From a virus: 7,118 bases of DNA. Where the stretch lies: UHGV virus genome UHGV-0319381; one strand, given 5' to 3'. The notes beneath the pieces are model-generated. The model was not told the DNA's origin and ran no database searches. It saw only the letters and a program-made list of their open reading frames with translations. Positions 247 to 7,118 of the stretch are shown piece after piece. A program made the translations under genes and the position numbers. Within the stretch, counting starts at the first letter, position 1. Each line of letters opens with the position of its first letter.

Positions 247-371
247 TAAAGAGGGGGTAAAACGTGAGCAGAGCAATGAACAAACTGAGCGATACCTTGC
301 TAAGGAAACTTCATGGTAAGCCAGCGGAGAAAAACACGTTTTATAGTGATGGCGGAAACCTGAGCGTGAAA
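247..371. repeat. Right arm of the perfect inverted repeat (int RBS plus first 36 codons)
   Basis: Exact reverse complement of 1-125. Confidence 0.9.
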
Positions 372-1493
372 TATTTAACATCAGGGAAATTGACCTGGTA
401 TTTCACATACAGGGCCGGAACGGGAAGGGAGACACGACCCGAACGCATTAAGCTGGGAAGTTATCCTGATCTGAGCCTGAAAGCAGCCAGGGAAAAAGCC
501 GCACAGTGTCGCACATGGCTGGCTGAGGGGAAAAATCCACGTCATGAGATGAATTACACCGTACAGGAAGCGTTAAAGCCCGTAACGGTTGGCGATGCGC
601 TCACCTACTGGCTTGAGTCTTACGTAAAGGAAAACCGCGTGGATTATATCGCCCTGAAAAGGCGACTTAATAATCACGTAATACAGCAGATTGGTGCTAT
701 GCCGCTGGATAAATGCGAGCTACGGCACTGGCTGGCCTGTTTTGACCAGGTGGCAAAGCGAACGCCTGTTACTGCCGGATTCGTGCTACAGGCGTGCAAA
801 CAGGCGCTTAAGTTCTGCCGTAGGCGGCGCTATGCAATCAGCAACGTTCTGGACGATCTGAACGTGGCGGACGTTGGGAAAAAACCGGATATAAGCGAAC
901 GTGTCTTAAGTAACAAAGAACTTGGCGAATTATTGCAGGCACTGGACAAAAAAATATTTTCCCCTTACTACGTCGCGTTAATCCGCCTCCTGATTGTCTT
1001 CGGAGCCAGGACGGTAGAACTGAGGCTATCGGAGATCGGGGAGTGGGATTTTACGGAAATGCTATGGACCGTTCCGAAGGAGCACAGCAAAACGAAGGTC
1101 GCAATATTCCGGCCCATACCGGAAGCGATCCTGCCGTTCGTCACGCAGCTGGTGGAGCAGAACAGGCACACGGGCTTATTGCTGGGGGAAGTGAAACAGG
1201 AGGCCAGCGTATCGCAGTATGGAAGATTAGCGCACAGGAGGCTTAATCATCCTCACTGGTCACTGCATGACATCCGGCGCACCTTTACAACCATGCTGAA
1301 CGATTTAGGCGTTGATCCGCATGTCGTGGAGCAGCTTACAGGTCATCAGATGCCAGGAATGCAGCGAGTTTATAATCATTCCCGTTATCTGGATGCTAAA
1401 CGCAATGCGCTGGATATGTGGATGGAGCGGTTAGGGATACTGGCGGGAACACATGAAAACGTAACCACGCTACCAGTAGCCAGAAGAAAATAA
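264..1493 (+). CDS. int: Site-specific tyrosine integrase, P4-type (409 aa)
   Basis: GTG start with GAGGGGG RBS 6 nt upstream. The N-terminus (KLSDT...GGNLSVKYLTSGKLTWYFTYR) aligns by eye with the N-terminal arm-binding region of CP4-57 IntA-like integrases. C-terminal tyrosine-recombinase signatures are present: ARTVELR, HDIRRTF, and Tyr in VYNHSRYLD. Confidence 0.9.
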   Translation: MSRAMNKLSDTLLRKLHGKPAEKNTFYSDGGNLSVKYLTSGKLTWYFTYRAGTGRETRPERIKLGSYPDLSLKAAREKAAQCRTWLAEGKNPRHEMNYTVQEALKPVTVGDALTYWLESYVKENRVDYIALKRRLNNHVIQQIGAMPLDKCELRHWLACFDQVAKRTPVTAGFVLQACKQALKFCRRRRYAISNVLDDLNVADVGKKPDISERVLSNKELGELLQALDKKIFSPYYVALIRLLIVFGARTVELRLSEIGEWDFTEMLWTVPKEHSKTKVAIFRPIPEAILPFVTQLVEQNRHTGLLLGEVKQEASVSQYGRLAHRRLNHPHWSLHDIRRTFTTMLNDLGVDPHVVEQLTGHQMPGMQRVYNHSRYLDAKRNALDMWMERLGILAGTHENVTTLPVARRK

Positions 1494-1867: not shown

Positions 1868-2056
1868 GTGTTAAGCACTGATCGGTTTATACGTGAAAAA
1901 GAATGCGAAAAGCTAACAGGCCTTAGCCGCTCATGCCGCTACCGCCTGGAAAAGGCCGGACAATTCCCATCACGTCGTAAACTTGGCGGTCGTTCCGTTG
2001 GCTGGTCTTTATCCGAGGTTCTGGCCTGGAAGGATAGCTGCAAGGCAGTTCATTAA
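1868..2056 (+). CDS. alpA: AlpA-family transcriptional regulator / excisionase-like DNA-binding protein (62 aa)
   Basis: GTG start with GGGGG RBS 5 nt upstream. The sequence (LTGLSRSCRYRLEKAGQFPSRRKLGGRSVGWSLSEVLAWK) matches the AlpA pattern (TG..R...Y......FP....LG..SVGW...E...W) and sits directly downstream of int, as in P4-like and PICI elements. Confidence 0.85.
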   Translation: MLSTDRFIREKECEKLTGLSRSCRYRLEKAGQFPSRRKLGGRSVGWSLSEVLAWKDSCKAVH

Positions 2057-2202
2057 TCACGCTGGCGGCACACAGCCGCCACACATCAATCATCTGAACA
2101 CAGAGCTATAACCATGAAGATTGAATATACGCCAGAACGTGGGCGGGGATTCGTTCGCCCTGGTGAGACTGGAAAACCACAAAATTGGGGTTTTTCAGGC
2201 AT

Positions 2203-2230
2203 AAAAAAAGCGGCCCCGAAATGGAGCCGC
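2203..2230 (-). terminator. Probable intrinsic terminator for the minus-strand RHH/57-aa cassette (possibly bidirectional)
   Basis: Stem GCGGC (2210-2214) pairs with GCCGC (2226-2230); on the minus strand it is followed by a T7 run (complement of A-run 2203-2209). It lies about 95 bp past the minus-strand stop at 2326. Confidence 0.4.
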
Positions 2231-2325
2231 CTTTCTGAACAGATAACACGCTGCGCCGTTTGTGTGTGTGATCCCAAACATAAGCACGGGGATGATAGCC
2301 GCTATCAGGCTGGTGGGCAATGCAA

Positions 2326-2499
2326 TCAGTCTGGTTCAGTTCGTTGCCATACCTGCAATGAGCGCTTTTCCCTGTACTCTTTAAGGAATTGCTCAAGGGC
2401 AAAAGCACATGGCGCGAATCTTTCTGATTCATGCTCTATCTTTCTGCGCCGTCTTTTCCGTGCCGGTGATAATGTTTTGGTCAATTCTTTATCGGTCAT
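2326..2499 (-). CDS. Hypothetical small basic protein (57 aa, MTDKELTKTLSPARKRRRRKIEHESERF...)
   Basis: ATG at 2499 with AGGA 7 nt upstream; same strand as and 57 bp downstream of the RHH gene; followed by the terminator-like hairpin. An alternative start at 2514 gives 62 aa. No family recognised. Confidence 0.3.
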   Translation of the reverse strand: MTDKELTKTLSPARKRRRRKIEHESERFAPCAFALEQFLKEYREKRSLQVWQRTEPD

Positions 2500-2556
2500 T
2501 GTGTTGTCCTGCATAGCAATGCGCCGTAATACCTCACACCACGGCGCTGATAGTGA

Positions 2557-2862
2557 TTATTCTGATTCTTTGGCCTTGCGGCGCTGTAGTTCTTCACGAG
2601 CGATGGCGATAAGTTGCCCGAGTTCTTCCGTAGCTTTAATACCAATTTTTTCCACTTGCGCCAATGCATCGAGAGAAGAAATCAGAGGATTTTCACTGCT
2701 TCCTTCTGCCTGGCGGCGGGCGATCTCCCCGCGCATGGCGGTTACTATGAATCCGGCGTTGCTTTCGCCGTCCAGTTTTACGGATTCCATGCCATCAAAA
2801 GCATCATGTGGGATACGAATTGAAATCTGTTTTGATTTGTCGTTGATAGTGTTTTTTGCCAT
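2557..2862 (-). CDS. Arc/Mnt-like ribbon-helix-helix DNA-binding protein, candidate repressor (101 aa)
   Basis: ATG at 2862 with AGGAGA RBS 6 nt upstream (complement of 2869-2874). The N-terminus KQISIRIPHDAFDGMESVKLDGESNAGFIVTAMRGEI fits the RHH pattern of a beta-strand with R-x-P followed by two helices. It is divergent from the rightward operon, with operators between them. Confidence 0.55.
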   Translation of the reverse strand: MAKNTINDKSKQISIRIPHDAFDGMESVKLDGESNAGFIVTAMRGEIARRQAEGSSENPLISSLDALAQVEKIGIKATEELGQLIAIAREELQRRKAKESE

Positions 2863-2884
2863 GTGCATTCTCCTAAACAAAAGA

Positions 2885-2960
2885 TGTGATTCAGTATACA
2901 CAAAAAAGAATCACAAAAAACACTTGACCTGTGATTCAGTTGAATTTAATTTAAATCACA
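2885..2960. promoter_or_regulatory. Divergent promoter/operator region: two copies of a palindromic operator TGTGATTCAGT-N-(G/A)AATCACA flanking a TTGACC -35 box
   Basis: Operator 1: TGTGATTC 2885-2892 with GAATCACA 2908-2915. Operator 2: TGTGATTC 2930-2937 with AAATCACA 2953-2960. The two are 45 bp apart. TTGACC at 2924-2929, then 17 bp to TAATTT at 2947-2952, so operator 2 overlaps the putative rightward promoter. Confidence 0.45.
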
Positions 2961-3049
2961 CCTCAGTAAGAGGATGTAAACGACAACGCCCCGAACTGTT
3001 TGCGGCAGTAGCGGGGCGTCTAACCAAACCGTTAACAGGAGTAACGATT

Positions 3050-3247
3050 ATGGCTGGAACACAGCATACCCCACGTCTGGCGCACACACAAACTGCCTTT
3101 GTGTGGCGTTTTCTGGCACTAAGTGCCGGAGAATCTCAAATCATCCACGTAACCGCCTGGACGGAACGCGAAGCGCGTAGCCGTTGCCCGTCCGGTTGTG
3201 TTGCTGTATTCGCCGCCCGTATTCGTCAGGGGTCACATCATGCGTAA
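3050..3247 (+). CDS. Small protein paralog A (65 aa) with FVWRF...TEREAR...ARIRQG..HA motifs; possibly the Icd-like/Ash-like small-protein family of P4-like elements (name uncertain)
   Basis: ATG at 3050 with ACAGGAG RBS and 8-nt spacer. Paralogous to 3534-3704. It is the only part of the long 2114-3247 ORF that looks coding. Confidence 0.55.
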   Translation: MAGTQHTPRLAHTQTAFVWRFLALSAGESQIIHVTAWTEREARSRCPSGCVAVFAARIRQGSHHA

Positions 3248-3533
3248 AAACCGCTTGCAAAAAATTATCACGGGGCTGTATGCTTCCCCCGTCGCCCACA
3301 TGGCGACCGGGTTTGACAGCCTGAATACTACAGCGGACAGCCGCTTACATTCCGATATGCGGTTTTTTTGTGTCCGTAAACCTACCCATACCCGCATTAT
3401 GGCGGGGCGTAACGGGGGAGCCTTTGCGCTCGCTGGTTCCTGTAGTGCCAGTCTGTCAACCCTGTTACGTCTCGCCACCATGTTTGACAGCGTAGTAGCG
3501 AGACTCCTTAATTTCACTACAGGAGCCTTTCAC

Positions 3534-3704
3534 ATGGCTGTATTCGCACGCCCTTATTTTGTCTGGCGCTTTATGCAGTGCCTGACAGACAGCATTGCAA
3601 TATTCACCGTTACCGCTGCCACTGAGCGCGAAGCACGTGCACAGCTGCCGCACGCACATCTGATTTTTGTCGCCCGTATTCGTCAGGGGGTGTGCCATGC
3701 CTGA
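3534..3704 (+). CDS. Small protein paralog B (56 aa) with the same FVWRF...TEREAR...FVARIRQG..HA motifs
   Basis: ATG at 3534 with identical ACAGGAG RBS and 8-nt spacer; shares a 19-bp identical stretch (GCCCGTATTCGTCAGGGG) with paralog A. A possible TTGACA-N17-CTTAAT promoter lies at 3484-3512. An alternative in-frame start at 3240 (154 aa) is not excluded. Confidence 0.55.
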   Translation: MAVFARPYFVWRFMQCLTDSIAIFTVTAATEREARAQLPHAHLIFVARIRQGVCHA

Positions 3705-4017
3705 TATGTCAAATTACCAGTACCTGATTAATCCGCATTTTAACTGTGAGCATGATATTGCTAAAAAAGTTTATTCCGCTGCGGATGGGGCTACTGACAA
3801 TATATCAATGGCTGTTGCGTCAATTGGTAGCCTGATGTGGCATGCGTCAGAAAATGAGGACTATGACGAAAAGGCCATGCGCATTGATATGGGTAATATT
3901 GGTTTGTTACTGGCAATGCTTGGACATTTTGATATTTCGTTACGGTGCACCATTGGAAATGCCACAGATGCATTAAATGCTATAAAGAAAGCGAATACTG
4001 ATTCAAATCGGGGATAA
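3697..4017 (+). CDS. Hypothetical protein (106 aa)
   Basis: ATG at 3697 with GGGGG RBS 6 nt upstream; start overlaps the stop of paralog B (ATGCCTGA). No family recognised. Confidence 0.5.
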   Translation: MPDMSNYQYLINPHFNCEHDIAKKVYSAADGATDNISMAVASIGSLMWHASENEDYDEKAMRIDMGNIGLLLAMLGHFDISLRCTIGNATDALNAIKKANTDSNRG

Positions 4018-4023
4018 ATAATC

Positions 4024-4323
4024 ATGAGAGCGTATTTATCTGGCTTTACTGCCAGCGGTTATGCACACCCCAAAATTATCCCCGGCGCTATTTATCTGGA
4101 TAAGAACGGTAACAGAGTAACGGTAAAAGAACTGATGTTTGACCGTGTGTATTTTATTCGTGATGGCTATTCATTTCATAGTTCGCTGAACGTGGAGATC
4201 TTTATTAGCAGATTCCGGCGGGAAATCCCGCTTTCCAGAAATAACCATGTGTCATGTATGGATGTTGATAAAAAACTACAGGAACTGAAAAACATGATTG
4301 CCGCGTGGAGAGAGCAGAAATGA
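4024..4323 (+). CDS. Hypothetical protein (99 aa) immediately upstream of, and translationally coupled to, the alpha-like gene
   Basis: ATG at 4024 with GGGGA RBS about 9 nt upstream; its TGA stop overlaps the ATG of the next gene (ATGA at 4320-4323). Confidence 0.5.
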   Translation: MRAYLSGFTASGYAHPKIIPGAIYLDKNGNRVTVKELMFDRVYFIRDGYSFHSSLNVEIFISRFRREIPLSRNNHVSCMDVDKKLQELKNMIAAWREQK

Positions 4324-6137
4324 AAAAAGCGCCAAATTTAAAACACCAGCCGCGTGACAAAATGACGGAAGTCATCATTTTTGCGGGTAGTGATGCGTGG
4401 GCACATGCGAAGCAGTGGCAGGAACAGGACGGGCGACTGGCTGGCGATAACGTGCCACCTGTCTGGCTTGGAGAGCAACAACTTGCCGAACTGGACAACC
4501 TGCAAATCGTACCGGACGGACGCTATCGCGTGCGTCTCTACCAGGCGGGGTTATTGCGTCCGGGGCTTGTTAATACCATCGGGCAGAAACTGGCAGCGGC
4601 AGGTGTCAGGGATGCTGATTATTACCCTGAAGGAATGCACAGCCAGAAACGGGAGAACTGGCGCGAATATCTGGAACGTGAGCGGGGAGAGCTGGCGGAA
4701 AAGAAAAAGGTAGTTGAACTGCCTGTAAAGAAAAAAGAGCGGGTAAAAGACGATAACGCTTCATCACTGGCGCTTAACCAGATGGGAGCAAGTCAACGCG
4801 GCGAAGTTCTCCTGGCACATTATGGCGGTGAACTGGCGATTCATGCTGACTCTGACACTGTTCACTATTACAACGGCGTTGTATGGGAGCCAGTACAGGA
4901 TAAAGAATTACAGCGAGCTATGGCGCAGATTTTCATTGATGCGGAGATCAGCTATTCGCAGAACGCCATTAAATCGGCGGTCGATACCATGAAGTTAAGT
5001 TTGCCTGTAATGGGGAATACAGCCCGTAACCTGATTGGATTCAGTAACGGTGTTTTTGATACCCGGACAGGCGATTTTCGGGAGCATAACAAAAACGACT
5101 GGTTGTTAATTGCCAGTGAATTACCTTTCAGCCCACCAGCAGAGGGGGAAACGCTGGCAACACATGCGCCGAATTTCTGGAAGTGGTTACGCCGTTCGGT
5201 GGCTGAGAATGACCGCAAGGCGGATCGCGTACTGGCTGCATTATTCATGGTGCTGGCGAACCGGTACGACTGGCAGTTATTCATTGAGGTAACAGGTCCA
5301 GGGGGAAGTGGTAAAAGCGTGATGGCGGAGATTTGCACCATGCTGGCGGGTAAGGCCAACACGGTATCGGCAAGCATGAAGGCGCTGGAAGATGCCAGGG
5401 AACGCGCGTTAGTGGTTGGCTTTTCGCTGATTATCATGCCGGATATGACCCGTTACGCTGGTGATGGCGCAGGAATTAAGGCCATTACAGGCGGTGACAA
5501 GGTGGCAATCGACCCGAAGCATAAAGCCCCCTACTCAACACGCATTCAGGCGGTAGTGTTGGCGGTGAACAATAACGCCATGTCATTCAGTGACCGCAGC
5601 GGGGGGATTTCACGTCGTCGGGTGATATTCAATTTTTCGGAGGTTGTACCGGAAAACGAACGCGACCCCATGCTGGCAGAAAAAATAGAAGGAGAGCTGG
5701 CGGTTGTGATTCGCCACCTGCTTACTCGTTTTTCTGACCAGGACGCAGCTAAACGCCTGCTGTATGAGCAGCAGAAATCAGAAGAAGCTCTGGTGATAAA
5801 ACGCGAGGGCGATTCGCTGGTGGACTTCTGCGGCTATCTCATGTCGTCGGTAATGTGTGATGGTCTGTTAGTGGGTAATGCCGAAATTATTCCGTTCAGT
5901 CCGCGCAGGTATCTTTATCACGCCTATCTGGCATATATGAGGGCACACGGATTCGGTAAACCTGTAACACTGACGCGCTTCGGTAAAGATATGCCGGGGG
6001 CAATGGCGGAATATGGCAGGGAGTATATGAAACGGAAAACGAAGCACGGTTTGCGTTCAAACGTGACACTGACGGAGGAATCAGAAGACTGGATGCCATC
6101 ATGTGTATCGGTCACTAATGACGACAGCAAAAATTAA
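4320..6137 (+). CDS. P4 alpha-like replication protein: SF3-type helicase / phage-plasmid primase P4-family C-terminal region (605 aa)
   Basis: ATG at 4320 with GGAG RBS; an alternative GTG at 4305 gives 610 aa. Walker A VTGPGGSGKS at about residues 325-333 and Walker B-like hydrophobic-D (LIIMPD). A long C-terminal region is followed immediately by TGTTCACC iterons. The N-terminal roughly 300 aa carry no primase signature I can recognise by eye. Confidence 0.8.
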   Translation: MKKAPNLKHQPRDKMTEVIIFAGSDAWAHAKQWQEQDGRLAGDNVPPVWLGEQQLAELDNLQIVPDGRYRVRLYQAGLLRPGLVNTIGQKLAAAGVRDADYYPEGMHSQKRENWREYLERERGELAEKKKVVELPVKKKERVKDDNASSLALNQMGASQRGEVLLAHYGGELAIHADSDTVHYYNGVVWEPVQDKELQRAMAQIFIDAEISYSQNAIKSAVDTMKLSLPVMGNTARNLIGFSNGVFDTRTGDFREHNKNDWLLIASELPFSPPAEGETLATHAPNFWKWLRRSVAENDRKADRVLAALFMVLANRYDWQLFIEVTGPGGSGKSVMAEICTMLAGKANTVSASMKALEDARERALVVGFSLIIMPDMTRYAGDGAGIKAITGGDKVAIDPKHKAPYSTRIQAVVLAVNNNAMSFSDRSGGISRRRVIFNFSEVVPENERDPMLAEKIEGELAVVIRHLLTRFSDQDAAKRLLYEQQKSEEALVIKREGDSLVDFCGYLMSSVMCDGLLVGNAEIIPFSPRRYLYHAYLAYMRAHGFGKPVTLTRFGKDMPGAMAEYGREYMKRKTKHGLRSNVTLTEESEDWMPSCVSVTNDDSKN

Positions 6138-6151
6138 ACTTATGGAATAAC

Positions 6152-6378
6152 TGTTCACCACTGTTCACCCTGTTATAAATATCTTTTATATCAGTATATT
6201 ATATGGTGAACAGTTATTTGTGAACTGTTCACCAAACTATTCACTGTTCACCTTTTTGATTATTTATTGAGCTTTAAGGGTGAACAGTGGTGAACAGTTG
6301 GTGAATAGTTTTTGTGAAACTGTTCACCCCTTAACATTATGAATAAAAAGGGAAAATCTCAAAAGGTGAACAGGTGAA
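6152..6378. repeat. Iteron array, putative origin of replication (crr/ori-like): about 11 copies of TGTTCACC in both orientations around an AT-rich core
   Basis: Forward TGTTCACC at 6152, 6162, 6226, 6245, 6321. Reverse GGTGAACA at 6205, 6279, 6289, 6365, with degenerate copies at 6300 and 6373. Several copies sit at 10-11 bp phasing. AT-rich stretch at 6171-6204. Confidence 0.75.
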
Positions 6379-6670: not shown

Positions 6671-7118
6671 CAGCACAGATAGCGGCTTACGGGCGGCTGG
6701 TGGCTGACCCGCAGTTAAAGACCACCAGCAAAGGGACACAAATGGCGATGGCGAGTATGGCGGTTCCCCTGCCGTGCAGCCAGGCAGATGACGGAACGGC
6801 GACGATGTGGTTATCTGTCCTGGCGTTTGGCAGACAGGCCGACGCACTGGCAAAACACCACAAAGGCGAACTGGTGAGCGTGGCGGGTAACATGCAGGTG
6901 AGCCAGTGGACAGGCCAGAACGGGGAAACGCGGCAGGGCTGGCAGGTTATTGCAGACAGCGTAATCAGTTGCTTAAAACGGTATGTTATCCCCGTACGGA
7001 TCAACATTTCCCGCCTGTTGTTTTGCCCTGTTCAGCGCGTCAGTAGCCTGGCCCTGTTGAGCTTTTTTGCCGCCCGGTCGCGCCGTTCGCGCACTGATTA
7101 CGCTGTCTGCAATAACCT
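6667..7118 (+). CDS. SSB-like OB-fold single-stranded DNA-binding protein, 3'-partial (runs off the window)
   Basis: ATG at 6667 with GGAG RBS. IAAYGRLVADPQLKTTSKGTQMAMASMAV...WLSVLAFGRQADALAKHHKGELVSVAGNMQVSQWTGQNGETRQGWQVIADSV aligns by eye with the bacterial SSB OB-fold pattern (VGRLG.DPE.R.T..G...A.F..A...W....A.G..AE.A..YL.KGS.V...G.L....W.D..G..R....V.A). No stop before the window end; the region after the OB fold is atypical (hydrophobic/basic rather than Gly-rich acidic tail). Confidence 0.55.
   Translation, partial: MTAQIAAYGRLVADPQLKTTSKGTQMAMASMAVPLPCSQADDGTATMWLSVLAFGRQADALAKHHKGELVSVAGNMQVSQWTGQNGETRQGWQVIADSVISCLKRYVIPVRINISRLLFCPVQRVSSLALLSFFAARSRRSRTDYAVCNN

Follow-up and report, generated by a model that had tools for sequence, protein, structure and literature searches.

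The window analyzed here, a 7,118-nucleotide stretch of the viral genome UHGV-0319381, contains two paralogous genes, A and B, separated by a stretch (positions 3248-3533) that is open in the reading frame of B and has no convincing start of its own. This raises the question of whether the stretch encodes an N-terminal extension of B, acts as an internal promoter or attenuator, or harbors a small regulatory RNA, the three options listed in an initial annotation. Each of them is partly true. A C4/CI-type RNA is detected by Rfam, a run of T residues belongs to a terminator/attenuator conserved in P1 and P4, and the in-frame extension matches the nested-gene layout of eta and kil in P4.

The stretch is a complete RNA cassette and not an orphan spacer. 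It is very probably an antisense RNA immunity cassette of the P1/P4 type, of the kind present in the immI region of P1 and in the immunity region of P4, and what looked like a spacer is the regulatory core of the early operon of the island. The cassette is an ordinary one of low novelty, its RNA and targets belonging to described Rfam families. Matches to C4 and isrK have already been reported in Gram-negative PICIs (PMC10111431).

The satellite island

The window represents a satellite island that is P4-like or PICI-like (Table 1). A copy with 97.7% identity in E. coli NZ_CP062855 extends further, into genes for ssb, the major capsid and head decoration that lie beside cspD. In E. coli strain ZH063, the cassette shows 100% identity to that of the window.

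At each end the window carries a perfect inverted duplicate of nearby internal sequence, 1-125 with 247-371 (125 nt) and 7093-7118 with 6944-6969 (26 nt), both 100% complementary. They look like fold-back assembly artefacts and not like biology; in the first of them, the beginning of the integrase gene is inverted. The region 6136-6350, immediately after the primase-helicase gene, is densely filled with direct and inverted GGTGAACAG/CTGTTCACC repeats of iteron-like appearance and is probably the replication origin of the island. Two 31-nt units of the form TGTGATT...AATCACA, located between the YlcI/YnfO-family gene and A (2885-2915 and 2930-2960), look like operators, the second overlapping a TTGACC at 2924-2929. 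At locus L002, RefSeq lists an "incomplete Icd-like" pseudogene antisense to the YlcI/YnfO gene (4377-4772, equivalent to window positions ~2276-2671, + strand), which probably derives from a spurious long ORF (2114-3247) running into A and is not a gene remnant.

Table 1. Coordinates of the genes, RNA elements and target sites in the window
Feature	Position	Strand	Basis or remark
Integrase	264-1493		
AlpA	1868-2056		
Divergent YlcI/YnfO-family gene	2557-2862	-	
icd-like paralog A (65 aa)	3050-3247	+	NF033153, 64.8 bits; stop overlaps ATG 3240
"eta-like" frame, 154 codons	3240-3704	+	Open frame, P4 eta layout; spans the RNA cassette and ends in B
Candidate internal promoter, TTGCAA (3255-3260), 18 bases, TATGCT (3279-3284)	3255-3284	+	P1 alignment, relatives
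a1/b1 (seqA/IsrK-like) element	3278-3369	+	Rfam, P1 alignment, compensatory change
First hairpin of the a1/b1 element	3291-3296 / 3302-3307	+	
a1, UUGACAG	3313-3319	+	In the loop of hairpin 3308-3311 / 3320-3323
b1, UACUACAG	3326-3333	+	Pairs with b' over 8 bp
Terminator stem and T7 run	3339-3344 / 3359-3364; T7 3363-3369	+	Stem and T-run conserved in P1
C4/CI-type antisense RNA	3395-3482	+	Rfam RF01695, P1 homology, fold
a2, UUGACAG	3484-3490	+	7-bp complement of a'; position of the annotated P1 a2
b2, CACUACAGGAG	3515-3525	+	11-bp duplex with b'; position of P1 b2
icd-like paralog B (56 aa), nested "kil-like" gene	3534-3704	+	NF033153, 53.7 bits
orf106, then DUF4222 gene	Between B and primase-helicase		
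D5/P4-type primase-helicase	4320-6137		

The C4/CI-type RNA

The initial annotation held that no RNA of the P4 CI kind could be identified here by sequence. This is overturned by a scan against Rfam, in which the C4 family RF01695 is matched over its full length (1-87) with 72.3 bits against a gathering threshold of 45 (E = 4e-13). It is equally contradicted by blastn, which aligns positions 3303-3492 (190 nt) at 80% identity with the c4 region of P1, a region defined by experiment; identity to P7 and D6 is lower, and blast returned no match of the cassette to P4. In the alignment to the annotated P1 record, features of the window stand opposite the P51b promoter, a1, b1, the C4 RNA, a2, b2 and the start of icd. 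The relation to the CI RNA of P4, earlier offered as a loose analogy, does exist and is one of true homology.

The minimum free energy fold (-46 kcal/mol, z = -5.65) reproduces the family consensus of a closing stem and two hairpins. The loop of the second C4 hairpin contains b' (UUCCUGUAGUG, 3437-3447), and the single-stranded junction CUGUCAA (3453-3459) constitutes a'. An AUG at 3399-3401, conserved at the 5' end of C4, is in frame with B. With ends taken from the annotated P1 RNA, the mature RNA would extend over approximately 3401-3479 (~79 nt).

From IMG/VR, 80 loci encoding relatives of paralog B were retrieved and the 27 close ones aligned. A covariance model built from these relatives was run over 96 loci, 80 of them obtained via a structure-anchored DNA pattern in IMG/VR, and produced 108 hits. 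The DNA pattern supplied the sequence diversity, as one genome per species, searched by means of an alignment of Icd-like proteins, gave 4 loci only. In 70 distinct homologues 99.6% of the pair cells are paired and 17 of the 26 pairs show changes on both sides, values that were reached by none of 500 shuffles and compare with 36-53% pairing in slid controls, the alignment behind these counts having been fitted to the model, which favours structure.

Target sites and covariation

The decamer GTTTGACAGC, reported initially as a repeat, occurs exactly at both 3311-3320 and 3482-3491. Taken alone the pair is unremarkable, with 0.58 expected when at most one mismatch is allowed and with two or more copies in 18 of 200 shuffles. 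The two copies are similar over 18 nt (83% identity), and the repeat is also conserved in P1; it holds the pair of "a" sites, a1 and a2, with each of which a' pairs over 7 bp. The Shine-Dalgarno sequence AGGAG (3521-3525) of paralog B, 8 nt before its ATG, lies within the b2 site.

The upstream element is matched more weakly by the Rfam models. RF03163, which describes the a1 and b1 targets of C4, scores marginally at 3278-3327 (46.8 bits, gathering threshold 46.7), and isrK (RF01394) reaches 35 bits at 3291-3369, below its gathering threshold of 50, the match ending in the T7 run. The short stem followed by the T7 run was correctly pointed out in the initial annotation; with its 6 pairs and 14-nt loop it makes a weak terminator. 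In relatives L021 and L027 a compensatory change, G3294A/C3304T, converts a G-C pair to A-U in the first hairpin of the element.

Comparison of 27 near-identical islands over 3236-3545 shows that almost all variation falls into the three a and three b sites. Two a-types and five b-types are combined in ten haplotypes, and a change in one copy of a site is always accompanied by changes in the other two. Every haplotype retains a duplexes of 7 bp and b duplexes of 7-11 bp, the RNA matching both the upstream and the downstream site. The a-types are UUGACAG with CUGUCAA and UUAGCAG with CUGCUAA, while UCAUCUGGGAG with UUUCCAGAUGA and UAAAUUGGGAG with UUCCCAAUUUG are examples of b-types. The a-type of the window is that of P1 and the alternative type of the sister islands is that of P7, and P1 and P7 differ from each other likewise. 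Covariation between antisense RNA and target is the basis of heteroimmunity.

The same relation extends to a more diverse set of 97 distinct modules with 39 b loops and 22 a junctions. The mean duplex of b' with the downstream site is 9.4 for cognate and 5.2 for non-cognate combinations, and that of b' with the upstream site is 7.8 and 5.3, respectively.

The cassette might alternatively be regarded as a decayed, non-functional remnant that was copied together with an icd-like gene in a tandem duplication. Tandem duplication and recombination of modules are evident in the relatives, and the scores of a1/b1 and of the terminator are marginal. Also, a copy in front of A is missing from the window, where the initial observation that A has no adjoining counterpart of the stretch holds; in L003, L015 and L029, unlike the window, a second cassette is found in front of the A-type gene. 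However, every structural pair of C4 is intact in the window, the pairing of the four target sites with the resident RNA is perfect, and the concerted switches of specificity seen between near-identical islands imply that selection still acts on this pairing. Decay is a very improbable explanation.

The search for complementarity between the stretch and the operon leader, proposed in the initial annotation, found none, the complementarity being internal to the stretch. No a/b site pair for C4 was found in the operon leader (2862-3050), and no a/b targets are recognisable in the leader of paralog A. The latter contains a GC-rich hairpin, CGCCCCG...CGGGGCG (2987-3018), with an equivalent in L003 (~1598-1626); considered as a C4 target, it proved not to be one. 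A loose similarity between the two leaders was unconvincing. A perfect 10-nt complement of b' at 4275-4284, in the DUF4222 gene, was rejected as a chance match, because it is present in L003 although b' differs there and absent from L015 although b' is unchanged.

Promoters

It had been proposed that the second GTTTGACAGC provides the -35 element of an internal sigma-70 promoter, TTGACA-N17-CTTAAT, that drives B independently. The string is present, with a perfect TTGACA (3484-3489) spaced by 17 bp from the AT-rich hexamer CTTAAT (3507-3512), 22-50 bp upstream of the ATG of B. However, this element is most unlikely to function as a promoter. It was not reported by the consensus scan, and a sigma-70 promoter was taken to consist of two near-consensus hexamers, the second and sixth positions of the -10 being A and T; by our own reading, CTTAAT has T at position 2. 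Furthermore, TTGACA is replaced by TTAGCA in 5 of 10 relative haplotypes with matching changes in a' and a1, a transcript starting from this element would lack a2, and the P1 record annotates promoters upstream of a1 only. Since the TTAGCA change is matched in a' and a1, the conservation of TTGACA is explained by RNA pairing, the hexamer being part of the a2 target.

A likelier internal promoter, judged by the sequence comparison, lies upstream of this element at 3255-3284, opposite the annotated P1 promoter P1c4/P51b (TTGACC-17-TATAGT) in the alignment. Its -35 hexamer is invariant in close relatives, and TTGATC-18-TATGAT is found at the same place in L039 and L040. The candidate agrees with the consensus at 8 of 12 positions, is weak and is absent from the scan output. 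Since the scan for promoter and terminator consensus sequences over 2850-3750 reported nothing relevant, the proposal rests on the P1 alignment and the relatives. Transcription from this candidate would start near 3291, where the isrK match begins.

The long open reading frame and the Icd-like paralogs

Both paralogs are Icd-like proteins, passing the 25-bit cut-off of the NCBIfam family NF033153 (phage_ICD_like, "host cell division inhibitor Icd-like protein"). As initially noted, an ATG at 3240 overlaps the TAA stop of A (ATGCGTAA at 3240-3247), and its frame runs without a stop past the ATG of B (3534) as far as 3704; indeed, every feature of the initial annotation is present at the position given there. 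In turn, the stop of B overlaps the ATG (3697) of the next gene, with ATGCCTGA at 3697-3704.

In RefSeq, the long frame is annotated as a single 154-aa "Icd-like protein" in 142 of 142 cassette-carrying genomes among 5426 complete E. coli genomes, and the RNA feature in none of them; at locus L002 it is likewise covered by a PGAP CDS. This is a systematic annotation problem, in which the cassette is labelled as the N-terminal two thirds of an "Icd-like protein".

Does the stretch then only encode the first 98 residues of a 154-aa Icd-like protein, without any RNA function? Such an explanation would be in line with the PGAP calls in all 142 carrier genomes, and with P4 eta being a real translated long form (PMC10111431). 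The frame is also more open than is usual by chance: the segment 3240-3533 is stop-free in the given frame in 106 of 5000 dinucleotide shuffles (p ~0.02), and the remaining two frames have 6 and 3 stops within 3248-3533. In addition, 25 of 26 close relatives keep the frame open despite indels, which sum to zero.

The other properties of the region speak against a plain protein. The translation of 3240-3533 matches no Pfam or NCBIfam family and gives only weak matches to PHROG "transcriptional regulator" families (E ~0.003), which presumably contain ORFs called by mistake over c4. Scored as a known RNA, the region lies well above threshold; its variation clusters in the RNA pairing sites with three-way covariation, and changes in the stems are compensatory. 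The frame is shifted in L020, and P1 has in-frame stops across the cassette. In the codon-position test of 3240-3533 the distant modules were saturated, even the icd controls being without third-position excess, and the sole informative pair, L039 and L040, showed no coding signature, with 25/38/35 differences by codon position. Between these two, the segment is only 65% identical and the icd-like gene 93%. A protein without RNA function is accordingly given hardly any weight, and the stretch is read as an RNA cassette that lies within an open frame.

The frame across the cassette is nevertheless not accidental. Of 95 modules, 55 have no stop anywhere in the cassette when it is read in the frame of the downstream gene, compared with 5 and 22 for the other two frames, and in 72 of the 95 the distance from the 5' AUG of C4 to the downstream start is a multiple of three. 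After clustering at 90% identity this relation is found in 22 of 32 clusters (p ~5e-5), with lengths of 123-144 nt, statistics that rest on related sequences. By analogy, this conservation would be explained by the eta/kil arrangement of P4.

Modular organization in relatives

Two or three tandem cassettes, each consisting of an IsrK-like element, C4 and a gene, are found in L003, L015, L029 (~1786-2668), L104 (three), L090, L097, L098 and L128. The tandem copies have their own a/b specificities and are spaced by ~480 or ~656 nt. A truncated icd-like 5' end precedes the first cassette of L003 and suggests shuffling of modules by recombination. The identities of 93% for the icd-like genes and 65% for the RNA cassettes of L039 and L040 (~2196-2662) indicate that cassette and gene differ in history, that is, that the locus is a mosaic.

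In the loci L087-L166, unrelated downstream genes share their first codons after b2, MAT(V/I)P(T/A). They comprise Icd-like genes, genes that are Rha/anti-repressor-like as judged by N-terminal sequence, and a 77-aa family. With this shared start, the boundary of the mobile module seems to lie inside the downstream gene.

Comparison with P1/P7, P4 and Gifsy-1

The cassette is nearest to P1 by sequence and nearest to P4 by gene architecture and island context. The immI region of P1 and P7 has the order a1 b1, c4, a2 b2, icd and ant (RF01695, RF03163). The window shares with P1 the succession of promoter (a candidate in the window), a1, b1, terminator-like stem, C4, a2, b2 over the Shine-Dalgarno sequence and an icd-like gene, and the a site UUGACAG/CUGUCAA is identical, while UUAGCAG/CUGCUAA of the sister islands corresponds to P7. 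The b specificity differs, being CACUACAGGAG in the window and GUUAGUGA in P1. Unlike in P1, there is no ant downstream but a satellite replication module, the cassette is preceded by an icd-like gene and not by a C1 operator, and it lies inside a frame that is open into icd, where P1 has in-frame stops.

The P4 immunity region consists of the promoter PLE, seqA, the CI RNA, seqC and the nested genes eta and kil, and precedes the alpha (primase) operon. Scanned with Rfam, the P4 record gives matches to isrK (seqA) at 8615-8692 with 60.8 bits and to C4 (CI RNA) at 8420-8507 with 74.9 bits, and both are contained in the long ORF of eta (8168-8812, - strand). The nested kil (8171-8365, - strand), which comprises the last 65 codons of eta, is itself Icd-like, with 76 bits on NF033153. 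As in P4, the long ORF of the window starts at the stop of the upstream gene, a short Icd-like gene is nested at its end with the b2/seqC site over its Shine-Dalgarno sequence, and a P4-type primase operon follows in an island of the integrase/alpA type. Unlike in P4, the coupled upstream gene is an Icd-like paralog and not an alpA/ORF88 homologue, the long ORF has 154 codons as opposed to ~198, and the terminator after a1/b1 is much weaker. The logic by which eta and CI operate in P4 was reportedly set out in the same way by Forti and colleagues in 1999. Two kinds of P4 transcripts have been distinguished: constitutive ones from the internal promoter are untranslated across the region and are stopped by pairing with CI, while those from the upstream promoter are translated as eta, in coupling with the upstream gene, and read through regardless of immunity (PMC10111431).

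The third related system is the isrK, STnc1160 (orf45) and anrP region of Gifsy-1 in Salmonella (RF01394). IsrK corresponds to the unit of a1/b1 and terminator in the window, and orf45 to the ORF that begins at the conserved AUG at the 5' end of C4, 45 codons upstream of the start of B. In Gifsy-1, orf45 overlaps the C4 homologue STnc1160 and is translated and coupled to the next gene (PMC4825925). Unlike in Gifsy-1, the isrK model gives only a sub-threshold score of 35 bits in the window. Furthermore, orf45 ends at a stop of its own ahead of an anti-repressor, while the frame of the window continues into the Icd-like gene.

Proposed mechanism

RNA processing, repression, downstream polarity and translational bypass are proposed for this locus by analogy with P1, P4 and Gifsy-1. 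A transcript would start at the operon promoter upstream of A or at the weak internal promoter at 3255-3284. It would then cross the two hairpins displaying a1 and b1, and next the weak terminator with its T7 run. As in P1, the C4 RNA, a three-helix molecule of ~79 nt, would be cut out of the transcript and be stable, exposing two single-stranded patches, b' (UUCCUGUAGUG) and a' (CUGUCAA). Their pairing with b2 (3515-3525) and a2 (3484-3490) would occlude the ribosome-binding site of B. In P1 and P4, loss of translation lets transcription stop early. Here, during quiescence of the island, an early stop would silence orf106, the DUF4222 gene and the primase-helicase, genes whose translation is linked to that of B through the overlap at 3697-3704. 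The upstream a1/b1 sites may serve as a second target or as a decoy, similarly to seqA in P4 and IsrK in Gifsy-1.

Repression by the RNA might be overridden from the upstream gene. Ribosomes arriving from A would enter the 3240 frame through the stop/start overlap and translate the target sites. The multiple-of-three spacing described above supports this scheme indirectly. As the frame statistics rest on related sequences and P1 has in-frame stops, this eta-like bypass is the least secure step of the scheme, held with less confidence than the identification of the cassette.

Implications

The current understanding of the mechanism is unchanged by this cassette. Worth recording may be the ten matched specificities, the frequent tandem arrays and the systematic annotation of the cassette as protein. 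The ten matched antisense/target combinations represent a natural test set for heteroimmunity of satellites among themselves and versus P1/P7-type phages.

Two linked ideas are put forward tentatively, and they are rather doubtful at present: the eta-like frame could be a selected, family-wide feature, and the a/b specificities together with the tandem arrays could constitute an addressing code. If true, translation from the upstream gene would be a general override of C4/CI switches and not a quirk of P4. The 2 x 5 interchangeable a/b specificities and the arrays of 2-3 cassettes would then prevent cross-silencing, both among co-resident satellites and with P1/P7-like phages sharing the a sites.
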